In this document: one piece after another, positions 3,647-9,557 of the stretch
Position numbering within the stretch: position 1 is the first letter of the stretch
Layout: each line of letters starts with the position of its first letter
Source of the DNA: a virus
Lineage: Duplodnaviria; Heunggongvirae; Uroviricota; Caudoviricetes
IMG/VR virus record: IMGVR_UViG_2657245448_000017
DNA length: 15,950 nucleotides
Direction: 5' to 3' (one strand)
The notes under the pieces: generated by a model
What the model was told of the DNA's origin: nothing
The model's input: the letters and a program-made list of their open reading frames with translations, nothing else
The model's database searches: none
Position numbers and translations under genes: made by a program

Positions 3647-4969
3647 TCACGCATGAGTTACCCCCTGCATGCTGTCGACAAGACCACGCGCAATTGTGAT
3701 TATTTCGCTGGTGGACATTCGTTCCAGCCAGAGTTGATTGATGTTGGCTTTCAGCTTGTTCTGCTGTGATTCATCCAGCATGTCAGCACCATCCACCTGG
3801 TCGAATACAATTCCAACCTCCAGTGGCCATATACGGGACTCGGGAAGCTGATCGGCTACTGGTTTAGCTTTCTCACGGATGTGCATGCGGATCTGGCGAA
3901 TATTGGACCAACTGGAAACATCCAGGCTTCCCATAGCTGCAATGAAATCAGTACTGTTCATGCCATATTCACCAGATGCTTCAAGGGCAACAGTACGAAT
4001 ACGTTCCGACATATCCAGGCGCGCAGCAGCGTCATCGAATTCAATCGACAACAGCCACTCATCCACACCGAGCAAAATACTCTCACGAATAAGCAGCTTC
4101 GCTTTGTCGATCGTTAATGGTGATACCTGAGTGAATTCCGGTGCTTCGACAGAATCCGCCGCCCAGGTATGCCCAAACTTCGATTCACTGAATGTGTATT
4201 CTTCTTTATCGCCGAACGCAGCTCTAACGCATGCCCACGCCTCAACACCGCTGATATCAAAAATATCTTTCTGGGTAAGTGGCAACTCTGCTTCTGGCTT
4301 GTCAGCTACAGGTGGTGTGGCGGTTGCTGGCTGAGGTTTGCTGGTGGCAAACTGTGCCAAAGCCATAAACGCGCGCCCTTTTGTTTCCAGTTCTGTGCGG
4401 TTGATATAGCTGAATCGCTCGCCACGCCATGACTTATCGAATACAGCTATGGCTCCGGAAAAAAACGCGCTGGTGGGCTTCTGTTTTTCGTCAGCAGGTA
4501 CAAACCACACTGGCAGATCGAAACCAATGCGCCCGCGAATGAATACAATGTGATCGGCATCTTCCGGCCACCACGTTTCACTCGGCGCGGCTTTTATCAG
4601 GAATACATAGCGACCGCCCTTCTCGCGCTGGGTTGCTGCGTACTTCATGATGTGCGTCATACCAGTGATCGCCTGTTTCTCGTGGTACTGCGAGCGGCTA
4701 TATGGAGGGTTGGCAAAAGCCGCGCCACCCAGTTCTGCCAGACGTTCAGACCAGTCCTGCGTCAGTGCGTTATCTTCGGCGGTGTACCATGCCGGGCATT
4801 TCGCGTTGTCGTCGTCAGCAAACAAGTCCAGAACTAATGGACCAAATAGCGCGTTGATACCCCAGAAAAGCAGATCCGGTGTCCGCCACTGATCGCCAAC
4901 TTCTTTCAATTCGTGAGCTGGTTTTGAACGCAGTTCGGCCAGCGCGCGGCAGTATTTGTTTTCAATCAT
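3647..4969 (-). CDS. Phage Dam-like N6-adenine DNA methyltransferase fused to a C-terminal domain of unknown function (about 240 aa)
   Basis: N-terminal WRTPDLLF...LDLFADDDN...NPPY motifs match the phage Dam family. Total length 440 aa is roughly twice the usual size, and the C-terminal half has no motif I recognise. Confidence 0.8.
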   Translation of the reverse strand: MIENKYCRALAELRSKPAHELKEVGDQWRTPDLLFWGINALFGPLVLDLFADDDNAKCPAWYTAEDNALTQDWSERLAELGGAAFANPPYSRSQYHEKQAITGMTHIMKYAATQREKGGRYVFLIKAAPSETWWPEDADHIVFIRGRIGFDLPVWFVPADEKQKPTSAFFSGAIAVFDKSWRGERFSYINRTELETKGRAFMALAQFATSKPQPATATPPVADKPEAELPLTQKDIFDISGVEAWACVRAAFGDKEEYTFSESKFGHTWAADSVEAPEFTQVSPLTIDKAKLLIRESILLGVDEWLLSIEFDDAAARLDMSERIRTVALEASGEYGMNSTDFIAAMGSLDVSSWSNIRQIRMHIREKAKPVADQLPESRIWPLEVGIVFDQVDGADMLDESQQNKLKANINQLWLERMSTSEIITIARGLVDSMQGVTHA

Positions 4970-5898
4970 CCTCTGAATCCCTCTGGAATTTTGGTATCTA
5001 CCGGGCCGAACTTCATCGGGTCATGTTTCTTCTCGCCCCAGCTTTCACGAGGGGGACGGCCTTTCTTATCCCAGCGGAGCCCGCTTTGCAGATAACCCTC
5101 AAATTTTTTCGGCCCAAACAGAGTTTCAGGCCGCATGTACTGATACTGCGCGTCATTGCCGTTCCAGTGTTCATGCTTGAGGTCAATCACCAGCGTTAAG
5201 TCGCTGACGGTATAACCTTCACGCAGACGGGCACGTATGTTTTCCAGAGAGGTTTTAGATTTCTGGTACCGGGAGCCGCTTACCTGGTTCAAATGAGTTA
5301 AAACCAGGATGGCGTTATCAGTGATCAACACCTCAGGGTCTGGTTGCGGCGCAACCGGACAAGAGGGGTTAATGATCTGTTTGTGGTGATCTGAGTAATG
5401 ATCTGTATAGAGAATAGGTTCCGCGACTTCGCGGTTAGGGTTCCGCGATTCTGCGTTTTCGGTTCCGTGATTCTGCGGAATAGGTTCCGCGACTTCGCGT
5501 TTCCCGTTCCGCGATTCTGCGGAATCCAGCGTTGCCGGGAATAAAACATTGATTAGCGCTTCGCCATTGATACGGTAATGCGTCTTTTTCGTGCCGTTTA
5601 CCTGTCGCTGCGCCTTTTCAACAACCCCTGGTAGCCAGCGGGTACAAATCTTGTTTACCAGGCGCTGCACCTGATCTTCACTCACGCCGCGAATCTCTGC
5701 CGCAAGCTCGCTGTGCTCTTTATAAAACCAGCCATCATTCAGATCTGATTTACCAGACCAGAACACGAGCTGGTTTAGCACAGCGCCCAAAGCATGCGCC
5801 TGCTGATCGCCGGAGAAATAATCGAGGTACGGGACCGGAATGGTGATGCTATTCCTTTGCCCCGACAGCGATTGAACGATTTCAAATATCTGGCTCAT
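4966..5898 (-). CDS. Replication initiation protein, lambda O-like, with conserved phage C-terminal domain
   Basis: 310 aa. C-terminal region (DNAILVLTHLNQVSGSRYQ...YTVSDLTLVIDLKHEHWNG...) resembles the conserved C-terminus of phage replication initiators. Five iterons lie in the middle of the gene, as ori-lambda does within O. Confidence 0.7.
   Translation of the reverse strand: MSQIFEIVQSLSGQRNSITIPVPYLDYFSGDQQAHALGAVLNQLVFWSGKSDLNDGWFYKEHSELAAEIRGVSEDQVQRLVNKICTRWLPGVVEKAQRQVNGTKKTHYRINGEALINVLFPATLDSAESRNGKREVAEPIPQNHGTENAESRNPNREVAEPILYTDHYSDHHKQIINPSCPVAPQPDPEVLITDNAILVLTHLNQVSGSRYQKSKTSLENIRARLREGYTVSDLTLVIDLKHEHWNGNDAQYQYMRPETLFGPKKFEGYLQSGLRWDKKGRPPRESWGEKKHDPMKFGPVDTKIPEGFRG
5417..5522. 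repeat. Five direct iterons with exact 22-bp periodicity (candidate origin of replication)
   Basis: Copies of GGTTCCGCGA(C/T)T(T/C)(C/T)GCG begin at 5417, 5439, 5461, 5483 and 5505. Each contains an inverted CCGCGA..TCGCGG element, and both flanks are AT-richer. They encode a repeated AESRN..REVAEPI peptide in the O-like protein. Confidence 0.65.
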
Positions 5899-6067
5899 GA
5901 TCGTCCGTTATCTCCCTGAACTTTCGCCTGAAATGCTCAAGTGGGCTGAAGCATTCGTGCGGGTAGCCATCACGCAGATAGATAACGCGCTGTGTTTCAG
6001 GTTCCCAGCGGATAACACGGACTGGCACTCCACGGTAGTCTTTGAACCTTCGGTTAAGTTCGCGCAC
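5882..6067 (-). CDS. Small hypothetical protein (61 aa)
   Basis: GTG start at 6067 with GGAGGG ten nt upstream; protein-like composition; overlaps the O-like start by 17 nt. Competes with a plus-strand ORF at 5897..6091. Confidence 0.3.
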   Translation of the reverse strand: MRELNRRFKDYRGVPVRVIRWEPETQRVIYLRDGYPHECFSPLEHFRRKFREITDDHEPDI

Positions 6068-6239
6068 AGGCGTTTTGCCCTCCGGTTGTAGACCCCCACA
6101 ATTGAAACCGCCCTACTGTGGTTACACGGAACCCAGCGGTTTGATAATCTGCGTTCATACCGAAACAACGGAGTACCCGAAACAGGGATCATCCTGAGTT
6201 GCGGTAGACGGTTAAAAGCCGTTAAACTATTCATGCGGA

Positions 6240-6788
6240 TTATTTCTCCATACTCGAAGAGTTGTTCGCCAAGGCGCCCGGAGCTGCACACTCGCGGGCG
6301 TCACTCTTTTCTGGAAGGCAGTAAACACGGGCAATCAAATTCAGAAAGGTCATCAGAGTTACCCTGAACTGATATGCAATGTCGTTAAGGCTCTGCCACT
6401 CACCCTTATCAACAACCCCATCGTCGATATACCAACGGTAAGCGTTGACCAGTTCTCCTAGACGCCCCACCAGCTCGGCCAGCTTTAAGCCAATTTCTTC
6501 GTTTTCGTCATCTGGCACCGCACCCGGAACGTGTATCCCGTTATCTGTTTGACGAGAAAACGCATCAGCTATGTAGCTGACACCGGCGGCTTTCTGTAAC
6601 ACCATCGCCCATCCCATAGGGAAGATCTGATCCCCGTCGACGCGAAGGCGGTTAAACAATGCGTTCTCTGTCACCCCCAACCATTCCGCCGCTTCGGCGT
6701 AGCCACCAGGCAGATCGGTAATCGTTTTTTTAATCGCTACCACCAGCCAGGCTGGCTGACGTTCGACTTTCCATTGCGGTTCGTTCAT
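6240..6788 (-). CDS. Putative CII-like lysogeny regulator (CP76-type) with N-terminal helix-turn-helix
   Basis: HTH-like segment GGYAEAAEWLGVTENALFNRLR and loose resemblance to phage 186 CII-type proteins. Start chosen at ATG 6788 with GGAG eight nt upstream; the track start at 6875 lacks an SD. Confidence 0.45.
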   Translation of the reverse strand: MNEPQWKVERQPAWLVVAIKKTITDLPGGYAEAAEWLGVTENALFNRLRVDGDQIFPMGWAMVLQKAAGVSYIADAFSRQTDNGIHVPGAVPDDENEEIGLKLAELVGRLGELVNAYRWYIDDGVVDKGEWQSLNDIAYQFRVTLMTFLNLIARVYCLPEKSDARECAAPGALANNSSSMEK

Positions 6789-6873
6789 TACTGCAACTCC
6801 ATTATTGGCGCCGAACTTCCTGACGGTGATAGCCTGCAAGCTCTCACACCAACAGAACCGAAGGAGGTTCGAC

Positions 6874-7110
6874 ATGTCTGTAAATTCACTGCCTTACGGC
6901 AAGTCTCCCGAAGAAGCCGCTCACGATCTGGCCATGAATCTTGTCTTGTCTGGTCACTTCAAAACATTCCAGAAGTCGCCAGAAGAGGTTTTTCAGTTGA
7001 TCACCAATGCAGAACTGGTCTTCAGTGAGCTTTACCGAAACAAACTGAAGGAAATAGAGTCCGCCAGATCAAAAGAAACCGAAGAGCAATATCAACGTAC
7101 GCAGTGCTAG
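6874..7110 (+). CDS. Hypothetical 78-aa protein encoded antisense to the early-right operon
   Basis: Near-consensus SD AAGGAGG (6861-6867) six nt before ATG 6874. Protein-like sequence MSVNSLPYGKSPEEAAHDLAMNLVLSGHF.... Its stop codon overlaps the stop of the convergent gene 7107..7352. Confidence 0.45.
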   Translation: MSVNSLPYGKSPEEAAHDLAMNLVLSGHFKTFQKSPEEVFQLITNAELVFSELYRNKLKEIESARSKETEEQYQRTQC

Positions 7111-7624: not shown

Positions 7625-7761
7625 AGTTTTTCTCCTGTGGTTTGAGGTAAAAGTTGTTGGCACCATTGATCATACAACCTAAACAACTTTTACCACAACT
7701 TTTAGGTGTTGGAAAGCTAAAACATAAAGTTGTAATCTCTCCTAATACAGGGGGTAAAGTT
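7625..7761. promoter_or_regulatory. OR-like divergent promoter/operator region between cro and cI
   Basis: Five perfect copies of AAAGTTGT or its reverse complement (7650-7657, 7683-7690, 7696-7703, 7726-7733, 7756-7763). Candidate PR -10 TATGAT on the minus strand at 7668-7673. Confidence 0.6.
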
Positions 7762-8448
7762 GTGAATACACTTGCGGAACGACTAAAAATAGCTAGAGAG
7801 AAGAAAGGCATGAGCCAGGCTCAGTTAGCCGAGCTAATAGGCCTGTCTCAACAATCTGTGGCGAAAATTGAAAATGGAGATACGCTTCAACCTAGAAAGA
7901 TCAAAGATATTGCGAAAGCTTTAGATGTATCCCAAAAATGGCTACAGCTCGGAATTGAGGAGAATGGCTCTATTTCTGATTTTGTAGTTGAGGAACTTGA
8001 AGAAGCAAAACTTGATCCTGAAGTATTTGCCAACATACCCGTTCTCGATGTTGAGTTCTCTGCTGGCAATGGATGTGAAGCCGAAATTGTGGAATCAGTT
8101 GTTGATTCGTTCCCTCTTCGTCGTTTCGATCTTAGAAAAGCTGGAGTCAGTCCTGCTAACGCAAGAATCGTAAAGATTTGGGGCAACAGCCTTTTGCCAG
8201 TATTGAATAATGGGGATCATGTCGCGATTGACATGTCACAGTCGAAACCTATCAGAGATGGTGATTTATACGCTGTTAGAGATGGAGTTTTACTTCGAGT
8301 TAAAGTTCTTATCAATCAACCAGATGGTGGTTTGATACTGCGGAGTTTCAACAAAGAAGAGTACCCGGATGAAGTACTCAACTTTGATGAAAGAAGAGCC
8401 AGAATACACGTTATTGGTCGCGTGTTCTGGTCTTCACGTTCATGGTAG
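7762..8448 (+). CDS. cI: CI-like prophage repressor (N-terminal HTH, C-terminal LexA/S24-type autocleavage domain)
   Basis: HTH QAQLAELIGLSQQSVAKIENG. C-terminal domain with Ala-Gly site (FSAGNG), Ser in GNSLLP and Lys in LLRVKVL, alignable to lambda CI. Start chosen at GTG 7762 after GGGGG (7750-7754), giving 228 aa; the upstream TTG at 7654 lies in the operator region. Confidence 0.85.
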   Translation: MNTLAERLKIAREKKGMSQAQLAELIGLSQQSVAKIENGDTLQPRKIKDIAKALDVSQKWLQLGIEENGSISDFVVEELEEAKLDPEVFANIPVLDVEFSAGNGCEAEIVESVVDSFPLRRFDLRKAGVSPANARIVKIWGNSLLPVLNNGDHVAIDMSQSKPIRDGDLYAVRDGVLLRVKVLINQPDGGLILRSFNKEEYPDEVLNFDERRARIHVIGRVFWSSRSW

Positions 8449-9321
8449 AGCGTGAAAAAGCATTTCTTCTGAAATGATTTTTAACTTAGCCCCTTCATCA
8501 TCTCTATATGAGACTGCTTTTTCTATTTTCCTTCCGTGACTGGAGAACTTCCAGTCACGCGAGGAAAGAGTACCAATTACGAGAAAATCAATTCTCTTTG
8601 TGATTCCGCTGGAAATCAGTCCATTATTCTTTTTAATTAGGTCTTCAACATGTGCTCTCTTTCCTGCCAAAAAAACACCCGTTAAGCAAAATGTTTTATT
8701 TTCAACAGAAACTTCAGCAGTATTATCTAATGGTAATTTAGTAGAAAGCCCATCTACGACGCCGCTTGCAAGGTCACAACCAGTAAAATCTACCAGCGCC
8801 TTGTGTAGATTTTCACTTTCTTCAGTGGTGATGATCCCATCGCTCAGAATCTCTTTTACTAAAGCGTATAGTTCCTTTCCTGGATAATTACTTTTTAGCG
8901 CCCCGTTCTGTGTTAACCACCAGTCCAGGTATCTCACTTCTTCTTCACTTAAGGTTCGATCTGATATTAAACCCTTGCAAAGACCATTCAACAGATGCAG
9001 ATCTGACTCACTGGAGAATAAATCCACATCGGGTATATCGAGTATTTGTCTTTGTATATCATTAAGATGCAGTTTTAATTCACCACGCTCATCATCAGAA
9101 ACAACACCATCGGCCAGTATTTTAGAAACCCTAACACTTAGACTCTTGATAACACCATTTCTAATGGTTTGGTTGGCTTCAAGTAGCCAAGTATCAAGAT
9201 ATAGCACCTCTTCATCCCGCACATGTCCATCGGCAAGAATCCCATCAATAATGCTGATTAAATTTGCAAAAAGCTTATTTCTATTTTGTGTGTAGTTAAA
9301 AACGTAGAGCTTGTCTTCCAT
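8440..9321 (-). CDS. Tandem TerB-like repeat protein with C-terminal BRCT domain (uncharacterised)
   Basis: 293 aa from ATG 9321 with AAGGAGG four nt upstream. Four copies of an (I/L)L(A/S)DGxxx(D/E)EExxxL motif resembling the paired motifs of TerB domains. C-terminal 80 aa (KTFCLTGVF...IDFLVIGT...) aligns by eye to the LigA BRCT domain. Convergent with cI, overlapping it by 9 bp. Confidence 0.7.
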   Translation of the reverse strand: MEDKLYVFNYTQNRNKLFANLISIIDGILADGHVRDEEVLYLDTWLLEANQTIRNGVIKSLSVRVSKILADGVVSDDERGELKLHLNDIQRQILDIPDVDLFSSESDLHLLNGLCKGLISDRTLSEEEVRYLDWWLTQNGALKSNYPGKELYALVKEILSDGIITTEESENLHKALVDFTGCDLASGVVDGLSTKLPLDNTAEVSVENKTFCLTGVFLAGKRAHVEDLIKKNNGLISSGITKRIDFLVIGTLSSRDWKFSSHGRKIEKAVSYRDDEGAKLKIISEEMLFHALP

Positions 9322-9557
9322 ACAGCCTCCTTTTTTGAACATCCTTACATTCAGACGCCCCACAATCAAACCACATAAAGTTGTTGACATAACCATTATT
9401 CACAACTAAATTACACCTTAAAGTTGTTATTACGATTTACAACATTACAACTAGCCATAAGCAACAGCGAACAGGCAGGACGCCCACGAAGTAGCCGCCG
9501 GTGGCGTATGAATAACCGGATGATTCGCTCAATAAAGTTAGGTAGGGGAATTTCACG
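9322..9557. promoter_or_regulatory. OL/PL-like operator-promoter region
   Basis: Plus-strand promoter with -35 TTGACA (9384-9389), 17-bp spacer and -10 TAAATT (9407-9412). Operator 8-mer AAAGTTGT at 9377-9384 and 9420-9427, plus partial copies at 9402-9410 and 9447-9452. Confidence 0.55.

Follow-up and report, generated by a model that had tools for sequence, protein, structure and literature searches.

An iteron array with ori-lambda-like anatomy, and probable origin function, inside the replication initiator gene of a lambdoid prophage

The replication origin of phage lambda, ori-lambda, lies within the gene of its initiator protein O. This intragenic placement is the textbook lambdoid design, so an array of repeats inside an initiator gene is expected and not surprising. 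The origins of lambda and the Stx phages contain four to six dyad-symmetric repeats (six in the Stx phages), and the reported minimum for the lambda origin is two iterons plus the AT-rich tract (PMC7466680). Described here is an array of five iterons in the initiator gene of a lambdoid prophage, identified in a 15,950-nucleotide stretch of virus record IMGVR_UViG_2657245448_000017 (Duplodnaviria; Heunggongvirae; Uroviricota; Caudoviricetes). This stretch is referred to as the window and covers the early region of the prophage; the late phage half lies outside it. The array and the elements adjoining it are read here, with a probability of roughly 80%, as the vegetative origin of the prophage, built on the plan of ori-lambda.

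The closest described replication module is the "O-only" module, found in phage LLS and, in a 2025 survey, in 34 of the 314 Enterobacterales lambdoid phages, the replication of which is stated there as not yet understood (PMC12315714, Genome Res 2025). Text searches of this paper found no mention of an origin or of iterons, and no published origin for this module was found in literature searches. The prophage belongs to these modules and shares with them a single initiator carrying a Phg_2220_C domain, a Dam gene immediately following, and the lack of a helicase or helicase loader gene. The DNA encoding its C-terminal domain (C-domain) is 88% identical to that of LLS. The similarity of phages LLS, Eeyore, and Flotzy to it is confined to the C-domain, at 87-88% DNA identity.

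The initiator gene, the coding regions of its domains, and the elements of the candidate origin are as follows, with positions in base pairs (bp) of the window and iterons numbered in gene order.

4966-5898, minus strand: replication initiator gene containing the candidate origin, an open reading frame (ORF) of 310 amino acids (aa)
5530-5898, minus strand: coding region of the N-terminal winged-helix domain (N-domain), aa 1-123, presumed to bind the iterons
5323-5529, minus strand: part encoding the linker between the domains (aa 124-192), predicted to be disordered and containing all origin elements
5086-5304, minus strand: coding region of the Phg_2220_C/TIGR02220 helical C-domain, aa 199-271
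5505-5521: iteron 1, CGTTCCGCGATTCTGCG followed by GAA, perfect dyad TTCCGC-N6-GCGGAA
5483-5499: iteron 2, GGTTCCGCGACTTCGCG, dyad CGCGA-CT-TCGCG (5+2+5)
5461-5477: iteron 3, GGTTCCGTGATTCTGCG and then GAA, with 5 of the 6 dyad positions matching
5439-5455: iteron 4, GGTTCCGCGATTCTGCG, dyad at 3 of 6 positions
5417-5434: iteron 5, GGTTCCGCGACTTCGCGG, perfect dyad CCGCGA-CT-TCGCGG, adjoining the unwinding region
5370-5416 (47 bp): candidate DNA-unwinding element, with TGATCTG(T/A) boxes at 5373-5380, 5387-5394, and 5399-5406 and GATC at 5374, 5388, and 5400
5338-5360 (23 bp): palindrome GTCTGGTTGCG-G-CGCAACCGGAC with 11-nucleotide arms that are 91% complementary, at the end of the origin and its junction with the C-domain

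The five repeats at 22-bp intervals proposed in the first-pass annotation are real. Tandem Repeats Finder places the array at 5417-5522 with a period of 22, 4.8 copies, and a score of 108; the score rises to 140 at a period of 44 because two unit subtypes alternate. All other arrays in the window score 34 or less. The sequence GTTCCGCGAYTYYGCG, with up to two mismatches, has five matches (5418, 5440, 5462, 5484, and 5506), all on the plus strand, exactly 22 bp apart, and with none elsewhere in the window. The chance expectation is a mean of 0.04 matches, and none of 200 dinucleotide-preserving shuffles reached five. The earlier consensus is exact in the units at 5417, 5439, and 5483 and is one base off in those at 5461 (CGT for CGC) and 5505 (C for the initial G).

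Each unit contains an internal inverted repeat, as had been noted, but in two registers. The units at 5417 and 5483 carry CCGCGA-CT-TCGCGG, and those at 5505, 5461, and 5439 carry TTCCGC-GATTCT-GCGGAA. Over the family as a whole, 4.2 of 6 dyad positions are paired on average, compared with 3.3 in control coding DNA. The array occupies nucleotides (nt) 378-481 of the gene. The spacers between the iterons (5412-5521) alternate between purine-rich sequence (GGGAAA, CGAAAA on the coding strand) and CTATTC-type sequence. This alternation produces a 44-bp super-repeat and larger inverted repeats between neighboring units, and the same is seen in many relatives.

The array falls within the linker, for which AlphaFold2 gives a predicted local distance difference test (pLDDT) score below 50, between two confidently folded domains; the linker location given earlier therefore stands. 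The flanks are indeed richer in AT: the GC fraction is 0.57-0.62 within the array and drops to 0.38 over 5360-5419 and 0.40 over 5540-5599. The span of 5378-5600 proposed for the origin includes the array but needs adjustment at both ends. The origin reaches lower, to approximately 5338, and the AT-richer flank at 5540-5600 lies outside it.

The arrangement resembles that of ori-lambda. Both are embedded in the initiator gene, between the segments for the N-domain and C-domain, and the iterons occupy almost the same gene position, at nt 349-433 in lambda O and nt 378-481 here. Read in the direction of transcription, both have dyad-symmetric direct repeats, next an AT-richer tract, and last an inverted repeat. 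The ori-lambda palindrome, GTCAGAGAATTCtggcGAATCCTCTGAC, lies beyond the A-rich tract, and relatives of the present gene that have a lambda-type C-domain carry the lambda palindrome. The differences are that lambda has four iterons spaced 20/24/23 bp apart, as opposed to five units at a strict 22 bp, and a plain A-rich tract without GATC, as opposed to three GATCTG boxes in a less extreme segment of 33% GC. The prophage early region also has no P gene, unlike that of lambda. The ori-lambda arrangement suggested by the first-pass annotation fits in position, dyads, AT-richer tract, palindrome, conservation at the DNA level, tracking of the N-domain, occurrence of chimeras, and presence of a P-like loader gene in two relatives. 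These are all of the sequence-level predictions of an ori-lambda-like element that could be examined, and they support its reading of the array as the probable replication origin. The description of the gene as O-like holds for its architecture and its PHROG label and does not extend to detectable sequence similarity with lambda O or Phage_rep_O.

The candidate unwinding region adjoins iteron 5. At 33% GC, the segment 5370-5417 has the lowest stability of any 48-mer in the gene and ranks in the top 1.7% of the window. In most relatives its boxes keep their places in the gene, with GATC at nt 496, 508, and 522, even where the iterons differ. In the window alone the clustering of GATC is unremarkable, as random placement puts three sites within 26 bp 28% of the time, and only the conservation across loci therefore carries weight.

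Selection on the DNA itself was examined using codon positions. Successive copies of the 22-bp unit fall into codon phases 0, 1, and 2, and AESRN and REVAEP, the motifs of the peptide, come back only at 66-bp intervals. A single E. coli relative with 92.5% identity does not separate constraint from recent recombination, and 13 relatives sharing the iteron type of the window were used instead (Enterobacter-like, Atlantibacter, Phytobacter, Citrobacter, Sodalis, Acerihabitans, Symbiopectobacterium, Rosenbergiella, Serratia, and Chania genomes). Mean pairwise identity over the first 585 nt of the gene, at codon positions 1, 2, and 3, is as follows.

Gene nt 1-369, N-domain: 0.78, 0.85, and 0.475
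Gene nt 370-487, iterons: 0.81, 0.83, and 0.765
Gene nt 488-534, GATC boxes: 0.82, 0.90, and 0.78
Gene nt 535-585, after the boxes: 0.45, 0.51, and 0.47

The N-domain shows the usual pattern of protein-coding constraint. Only in the iterons and the 47 bp that follow are third positions as conserved as first and second positions, which places selection on the DNA and not on the peptide. The pattern indicates that the nucleotide sequence of the iterons and boxes is under selection in a linker whose peptide is otherwise free to vary. Of the two flanks of the array, only the low-coordinate one shows this conservation; the high-coordinate flank evolves as ordinary coding sequence.

A scan of one genome per species identified 29 loci encoding a related N-domain. 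Approximately 25 of these, mostly in Enterobacterales, keep the layout of about five dyad repeats 22 bp apart, three boxes, and a palindrome, and these elements always follow one another in that order. The iterons are followed by CCTATYCTYTATACAGATC, then three ACAGATC boxes, and then the palindrome. Of 27 loci from Enterobacterales, Vibrio, and Algicola, most space their iterons 22, 22, 22, 22 or 22, 22, 22, 25 bp apart, at nt 370-490. Iterons in general consist of a 14-bp dyad, C[G/C]GC-N6-GC[G/C]G, and a subsequent AAY, with the central six bases and details of the arms varying by clade. The iteron cores are as follows.

Clade of the window: CGCAGAATCGCGGAAC
Other clades: ACGTCGAAAGTGCGGAAT; CGGCAATATTGCCGAAC; CGGCACAAACGCCGAAT; CGGCTCTTAAGCCGAAT
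Vibrio locus: GGGAATATTACCGAAA
Algicola locus: GGGAAAAGTCCCAAA

Two kinds of natural variant are present. In the first (L037:840-1015, protein P0002; 16 contigs), exactly 66 bp are missing, corresponding to three iterons removed in frame, and the sequence is otherwise 100% identical across the origin. This variant retains two iterons and the boxes. In the second, found in loci L008 and L023 and in phage mEp390 (3340-3600), ACAGAC or ACAGAG stands in each box in place of a GATC-containing sequence, and the layout is kept.

The palindrome is found at the corresponding position in most relatives, and its type tracks the type of C-domain, not the N-domain or the iterons. The palindrome of the window, GTCCGGTTGCGcCGCAACCAGAC, accompanies Phg_2220_C, including in LLS and mEp390. 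A lambda-like palindrome, GTCnnAGAATTCtggcGAATCCnnnGAC, is found in L009, L011, L017, L020, and L021, all of which lack Phg_2220_C. A lambda-O-type C-domain is seen in the protein alignment for L009 and is presumed for the other four. The palindrome may mark a recombination joint between modules.

The exchange of domains is the strongest argument that the N-domain and iterons form one functional unit, equivalent to the lambda O N-domain and ori-lambda. A Citrobacter prophage has the N-domain and iterons of the window, with 96% identity across the first 189 residues, and joins them to a homologue of the lambda O C-domain (E value 5e-26) that includes the PNxxxWANxxRLM and NVLSPxKLRxKW motifs. 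A gene for a P-like helicase loader (phrog_109, E values 2e-73 and 7e-50) follows the initiator in L024 and L030. LLS presents the reverse case, with the same C-domain, an unrelated N-domain of the HTH_36 type, and a different array at the same place, consisting of four copies of TCTGACGCATCAAAA with a 15-bp period. The mosaic junctions fall at the palindrome next to the boxes.

The boxes also resemble the unwinding element of the bacterial origin oriC, where three tandem boxes starting with GATCT form the least stable part of the origin and adjoin an array of initiator-binding sites. The consensus of the oriC 13-mers is GATCTnTTnnTTT (PMC4081077). The box at 5374 reads GATCTGTTTGTGG, compared with GATCTGTTCTATT for the middle 13-mer of oriC, a sequence checked as a single-copy match in 5425 of 5426 E. 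coli genomes. One relative carries GATCTGTTCTTTT, an exact fit to the consensus. All three boxes of the window start with GATCTG; TT comes next only in the one at 5374, and none of the tails is T-rich. The boxes differ from those of oriC in that they are 12-14 bp apart, not 15-16, match in the first 7-8 bases alone, have no DnaA box near them, and lack GATC in some relatives. The DnaA box TTWTNCACA has no match near the origin; its one occurrence in the window is at 9396, compared with an expectation of 1.4.

A site for integration host factor (IHF) was considered and set aside. The sole match in the window to WATCAANNNNTTR is AATCAATGTTTTA (5542-5554, minus strand), 20 bp from the first iteron. 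This match is present in only 2 of 32 related genes and is probably due to chance.

Plasmid origins with iterons, namely RK2 oriV with TrfA, F oriS with RepE, and P1 oriR with RepA, are similar in having a winged-helix initiator, phased iterons, and short repeated motifs in an adjacent unwinding element. They differ in being intergenic and usually accompanied by DnaA boxes. P1 oriR contains repeats with GATC and is Dam-dependent. RepE has a two-winged-helix fold, as opposed to the one predicted winged-helix domain and unrelated helical domain of the initiator described here (AlphaFold2). TrfA and RepE bind one strand of the motifs in the unwinding element (PMC4081077), and the GATC boxes may thus serve as a sequence-specific landing site for single-strand binding and not merely as weak DNA. 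SeqA binds the P1 origin core in a methylation-specific manner, according to Brendler et al. 1995 as cited in PMC4081077.

The proposed sequence of events at the origin is as follows. After derepression, the rightward early promoter, which is directed leftward in the window, would give rise to the 310-aa initiator. Its winged-helix domain would bind the five dyad iterons at 5417-5521, probably as dimers. The exact 22-bp spacing, close to two helical turns, would place the bound proteins on roughly one face of the DNA, where they could wrap it into a complex resembling the lambda O-some. The stress of wrapping, together with transcription through the site, would open the low-stability segment 5370-5416 with its three GATCTG boxes. 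The C-domain is presumed to recruit the host replication machinery and would bring in the host helicase, directly or by way of host DnaC.

Several points weigh against the origin reading. A GC content of 33% is moderate for a candidate unwinding region, as about 5% of the 48-mers in the window are as low or lower. The identity of N-domains correlates with that of iterons (Spearman 0.64, Mantel p≤2e-4), a result that is only consistent with co-evolution because adjacent DNA is inherited together. BLASTP of the whole initiator against lambda O, including the C-domain, gives a best E value of 0.52, which is no detectable similarity. With no detectable sequence similarity to lambda O or Phage_rep_O, homology of mechanism is argued from the architecture and the chimeras. 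For the whole initiator family, iteron binding and origin firing are computational predictions; the support for binding by the N-domain is indirect and comes from its winged-helix fold, from its co-variation with the iterons, and from the modular exchange. The early region encodes no helicase or loader; no homologue of P, DnaC, or DnaB was found between Q and int, and the gene downstream of the initiator is Dam.

The Dam gene encodes a phage GATC N6-adenine methyltransferase and overlaps the stop codon of the initiator gene. Its position is as follows.

3647-4969, minus strand: phage Dam methyltransferase gene (Pfam Dam, E value 9.6e-45; TIGR01712, E value 3.6e-61)

The 440-aa product has a Dam domain at aa 19-199 and a C-terminal extension of approximately 240 aa without family assignment, the middle of which is absent in LLS. 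The overlap of the two genes suggests a link to methylation and SeqA, in which Dam might act together with the GATC boxes. Of 31 other loci examined, 14 have a Dam gene downstream of the initiator gene. Among the GATC-less relatives, no Dam gene was found downstream in L008 or L023, and the annotation of mEp390 shows none at that place. With Dam in only 14 of 31 loci, and many GATC-box loci lacking it, an association between Dam and GATC is not demonstrable.

A fuller reading that combines these features is offered tentatively, as a possibility well short of an even chance. The locus would be the origin of the unstudied "O-only" class, in which a winged-helix initiator unlike lambda O in sequence acts on dyad iterons at a strict 22-bp phasing, a triple GATCTG element opens in the manner of oriC, and the helicase is loaded through Phg_2220_C without a loader. 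The phage Dam would keep the GATC sites of the origin fully methylated, allowing escape from SeqA sequestration and repeated re-firing during lytic growth.

The explanation that best survives beside the origin reading, although unlikely, is that the repeats are initiator-binding sites used mainly for control (autoregulation, titration, handcuffing, or incompatibility), with replication starting elsewhere. Plasmid iteron arrays serve initiation and copy control alike, and sequence alone cannot separate the two roles. However, this is the sole repeat array in the 16-kb early region, although a second origin is possible in the late phage half. The array also adjoins the least stable segment of the gene, itself conserved as DNA, and the order of iterons, AT-rich stretch, and palindrome copies that of the functional lambda origin.

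Less probable still is that the repeats and GATC boxes are bound by another factor, such as host SeqA or a different phage regulator, or form mainly a recombination joint. The three GATC sites, 14 and 12 bp apart, do resemble the GATC clusters bound by SeqA at the 13-mer region of oriC (Brendler et al. 1995 and Slater et al. 1995, as cited in PMC4081077), and the placement of the mosaic junctions at the palindrome beside the boxes agrees with a joint. Iteron sequence, however, follows the adjacent initiator N-domain and no constant host factor, and relatives with GATC-less ACAGAC boxes, including mEp390, keep the whole layout. A role as a recombination joint is compatible with origin function and would be secondary to it.

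The palindromic units could instead act as RNA hairpins, in the initiator mRNA or an antisense transcript, that control translation, stability, or antitermination; this is considered very improbable. The RNA of 5360-5540 has a folding energy of −51.3 kcal/mol compared with −38.5 kcal/mol for shuffles (z = −3.3), and dyad-preserving changes across clades would also look like compensatory changes. The fold is nevertheless ill-defined, with the minimum free energy structure making up 1.7% of the ensemble and a centroid that is almost unpaired. A search of Rfam gave no match, and a scan of both strands over 4900-6400 turned up nothing resembling a promoter or a terminator within the array or next to it. 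Dyad positions that are not Watson-Crick pairs show no enrichment for G-U on the mRNA strand (18 G-T against 65 A-C), and strict 22-bp phasing suits an array of DNA-protein contacts better than independent hairpins.

A repeat at the protein level, in which slippage produced a low-complexity SAESRN/REVAEP linker with no DNA function, has next to no standing: the AESRN and REVAEP motifs do recur and the linker is predicted to be disordered, but the idea is contradicted by a period that is not a multiple of three and runs through three reading frames, by third codon positions as conserved as the others in the array while the linker past the elements is unconstrained, and by spacing and copy number that are kept across genera as the sequence changes.

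With the prophage origin read on the ori-lambda plan, the modestly new points are a three-part map that holds across the family, the strict 22-bp phasing, and an unwinding element with GATC boxes; the question of helicase recruitment also becomes testable. The map would serve the "O-only" module, which accounts for about one in nine Enterobacterales lambdoid phages in the 2025 survey (PMC12315714). The family offers natural material in the form of matched variants of iteron and N-domain, versions with two iterons or without GATC, and chimeras with a lambda O C-domain. These variants could reveal how the host helicase is recruited and whether methylation of the origin GATC sites matters.

The initiator protein matches phrog_428, "replication initiation protein", with an E value of 1.8e-51, and phrog_9773, "replication initiation O-like", with an E value of 6.9e-34 over aa 10-186. 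Phg_2220_C/TIGR02220 is the sole Pfam or NCBIfam domain recognized in it. Pfam Phg_2220_C spans aa 199-271 (E value 9e-24, 83.8 bits against a cut-off of 27), and TIGR02220 passes its curated threshold on the C-domain with 69.7 bits against 66.65. The N-domain has no match in Pfam even at E≤10, including Phage_rep_O (PF04492), and a profile of the whole-protein alignment has no match among Protein Data Bank sequences.

In the AlphaFold2 model of the N-domain (pLDDT 80-93), residues 34-50, 62-69, and 74-88 form helices and residues 93-110 a beta wing. The best Foldseek matches of the domain are winged-helix DNA binders of the MarR/PadR/HxlR type, with a probability of about 1 and weak E values of 0.04-0.3. 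The C-domain is modeled confidently (pLDDT 81), and no convincing fold match or structural neighbor was found for it. An HHpred analysis reported in PMC5509034 reads lambda O itself as HTH_36 plus Phg_2220_C; if that reading holds, the C-domain of the present initiator would be a remote relative of that of lambda O.

The N-domain is approximately 32% identical to "DnaD-like" or replication-initiation proteins of Staphylococcus phages and is therefore widespread. The DnaD-type proteins of Firmicutes and their phages are also approached by weak PHROG matches to "DnaD-like helicase loader" families (phrog_6493, 1e-13; phrog_1701, 3e-6) and by sub-threshold DnaD_N Pfam matches in relatives of the initiator. 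These matches are all below curated thresholds or in the noise, and the protein of the window has no DnaD_N or DnaB_2 Pfam match.

The exact initiator protein is present in 15 public contigs. The nearest named cluster is 97% identical and belongs to the Enterobacter cloacae complex, and a relative of the initiator is present in 13 of 5426 complete E. coli genomes. A copy of the prophage region that is 97% identical (L003) is found in a metagenome-assembled genome labeled Geobacteraceae, probably through a binning error. On one contig (L036), yfdP and DUF2303 genes directly abut the initiator-Dam-RusA block, with repressor, Cro, and CII not called between them.

The remaining features of the early region are as follows.

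Rightward-type operon, minus strand: Cro-like, CII-like (6240-6875), small ORF, initiator (4966-5898), Dam (3647-4969), RusA, antirepressor, HNH/DUF968, and Q antiterminator
7654-8448, plus strand: CI-like repressor, with the leftward operon and integrase also on the plus strand

Between the CI-like repressor gene and the leftward operon lies an ORF of 318 aa (8440-9396, minus strand) with function unassigned, which matches phrog_3989 with an E value of 2e-114. Its C-terminal end is weakly similar to DNA-ligase families.

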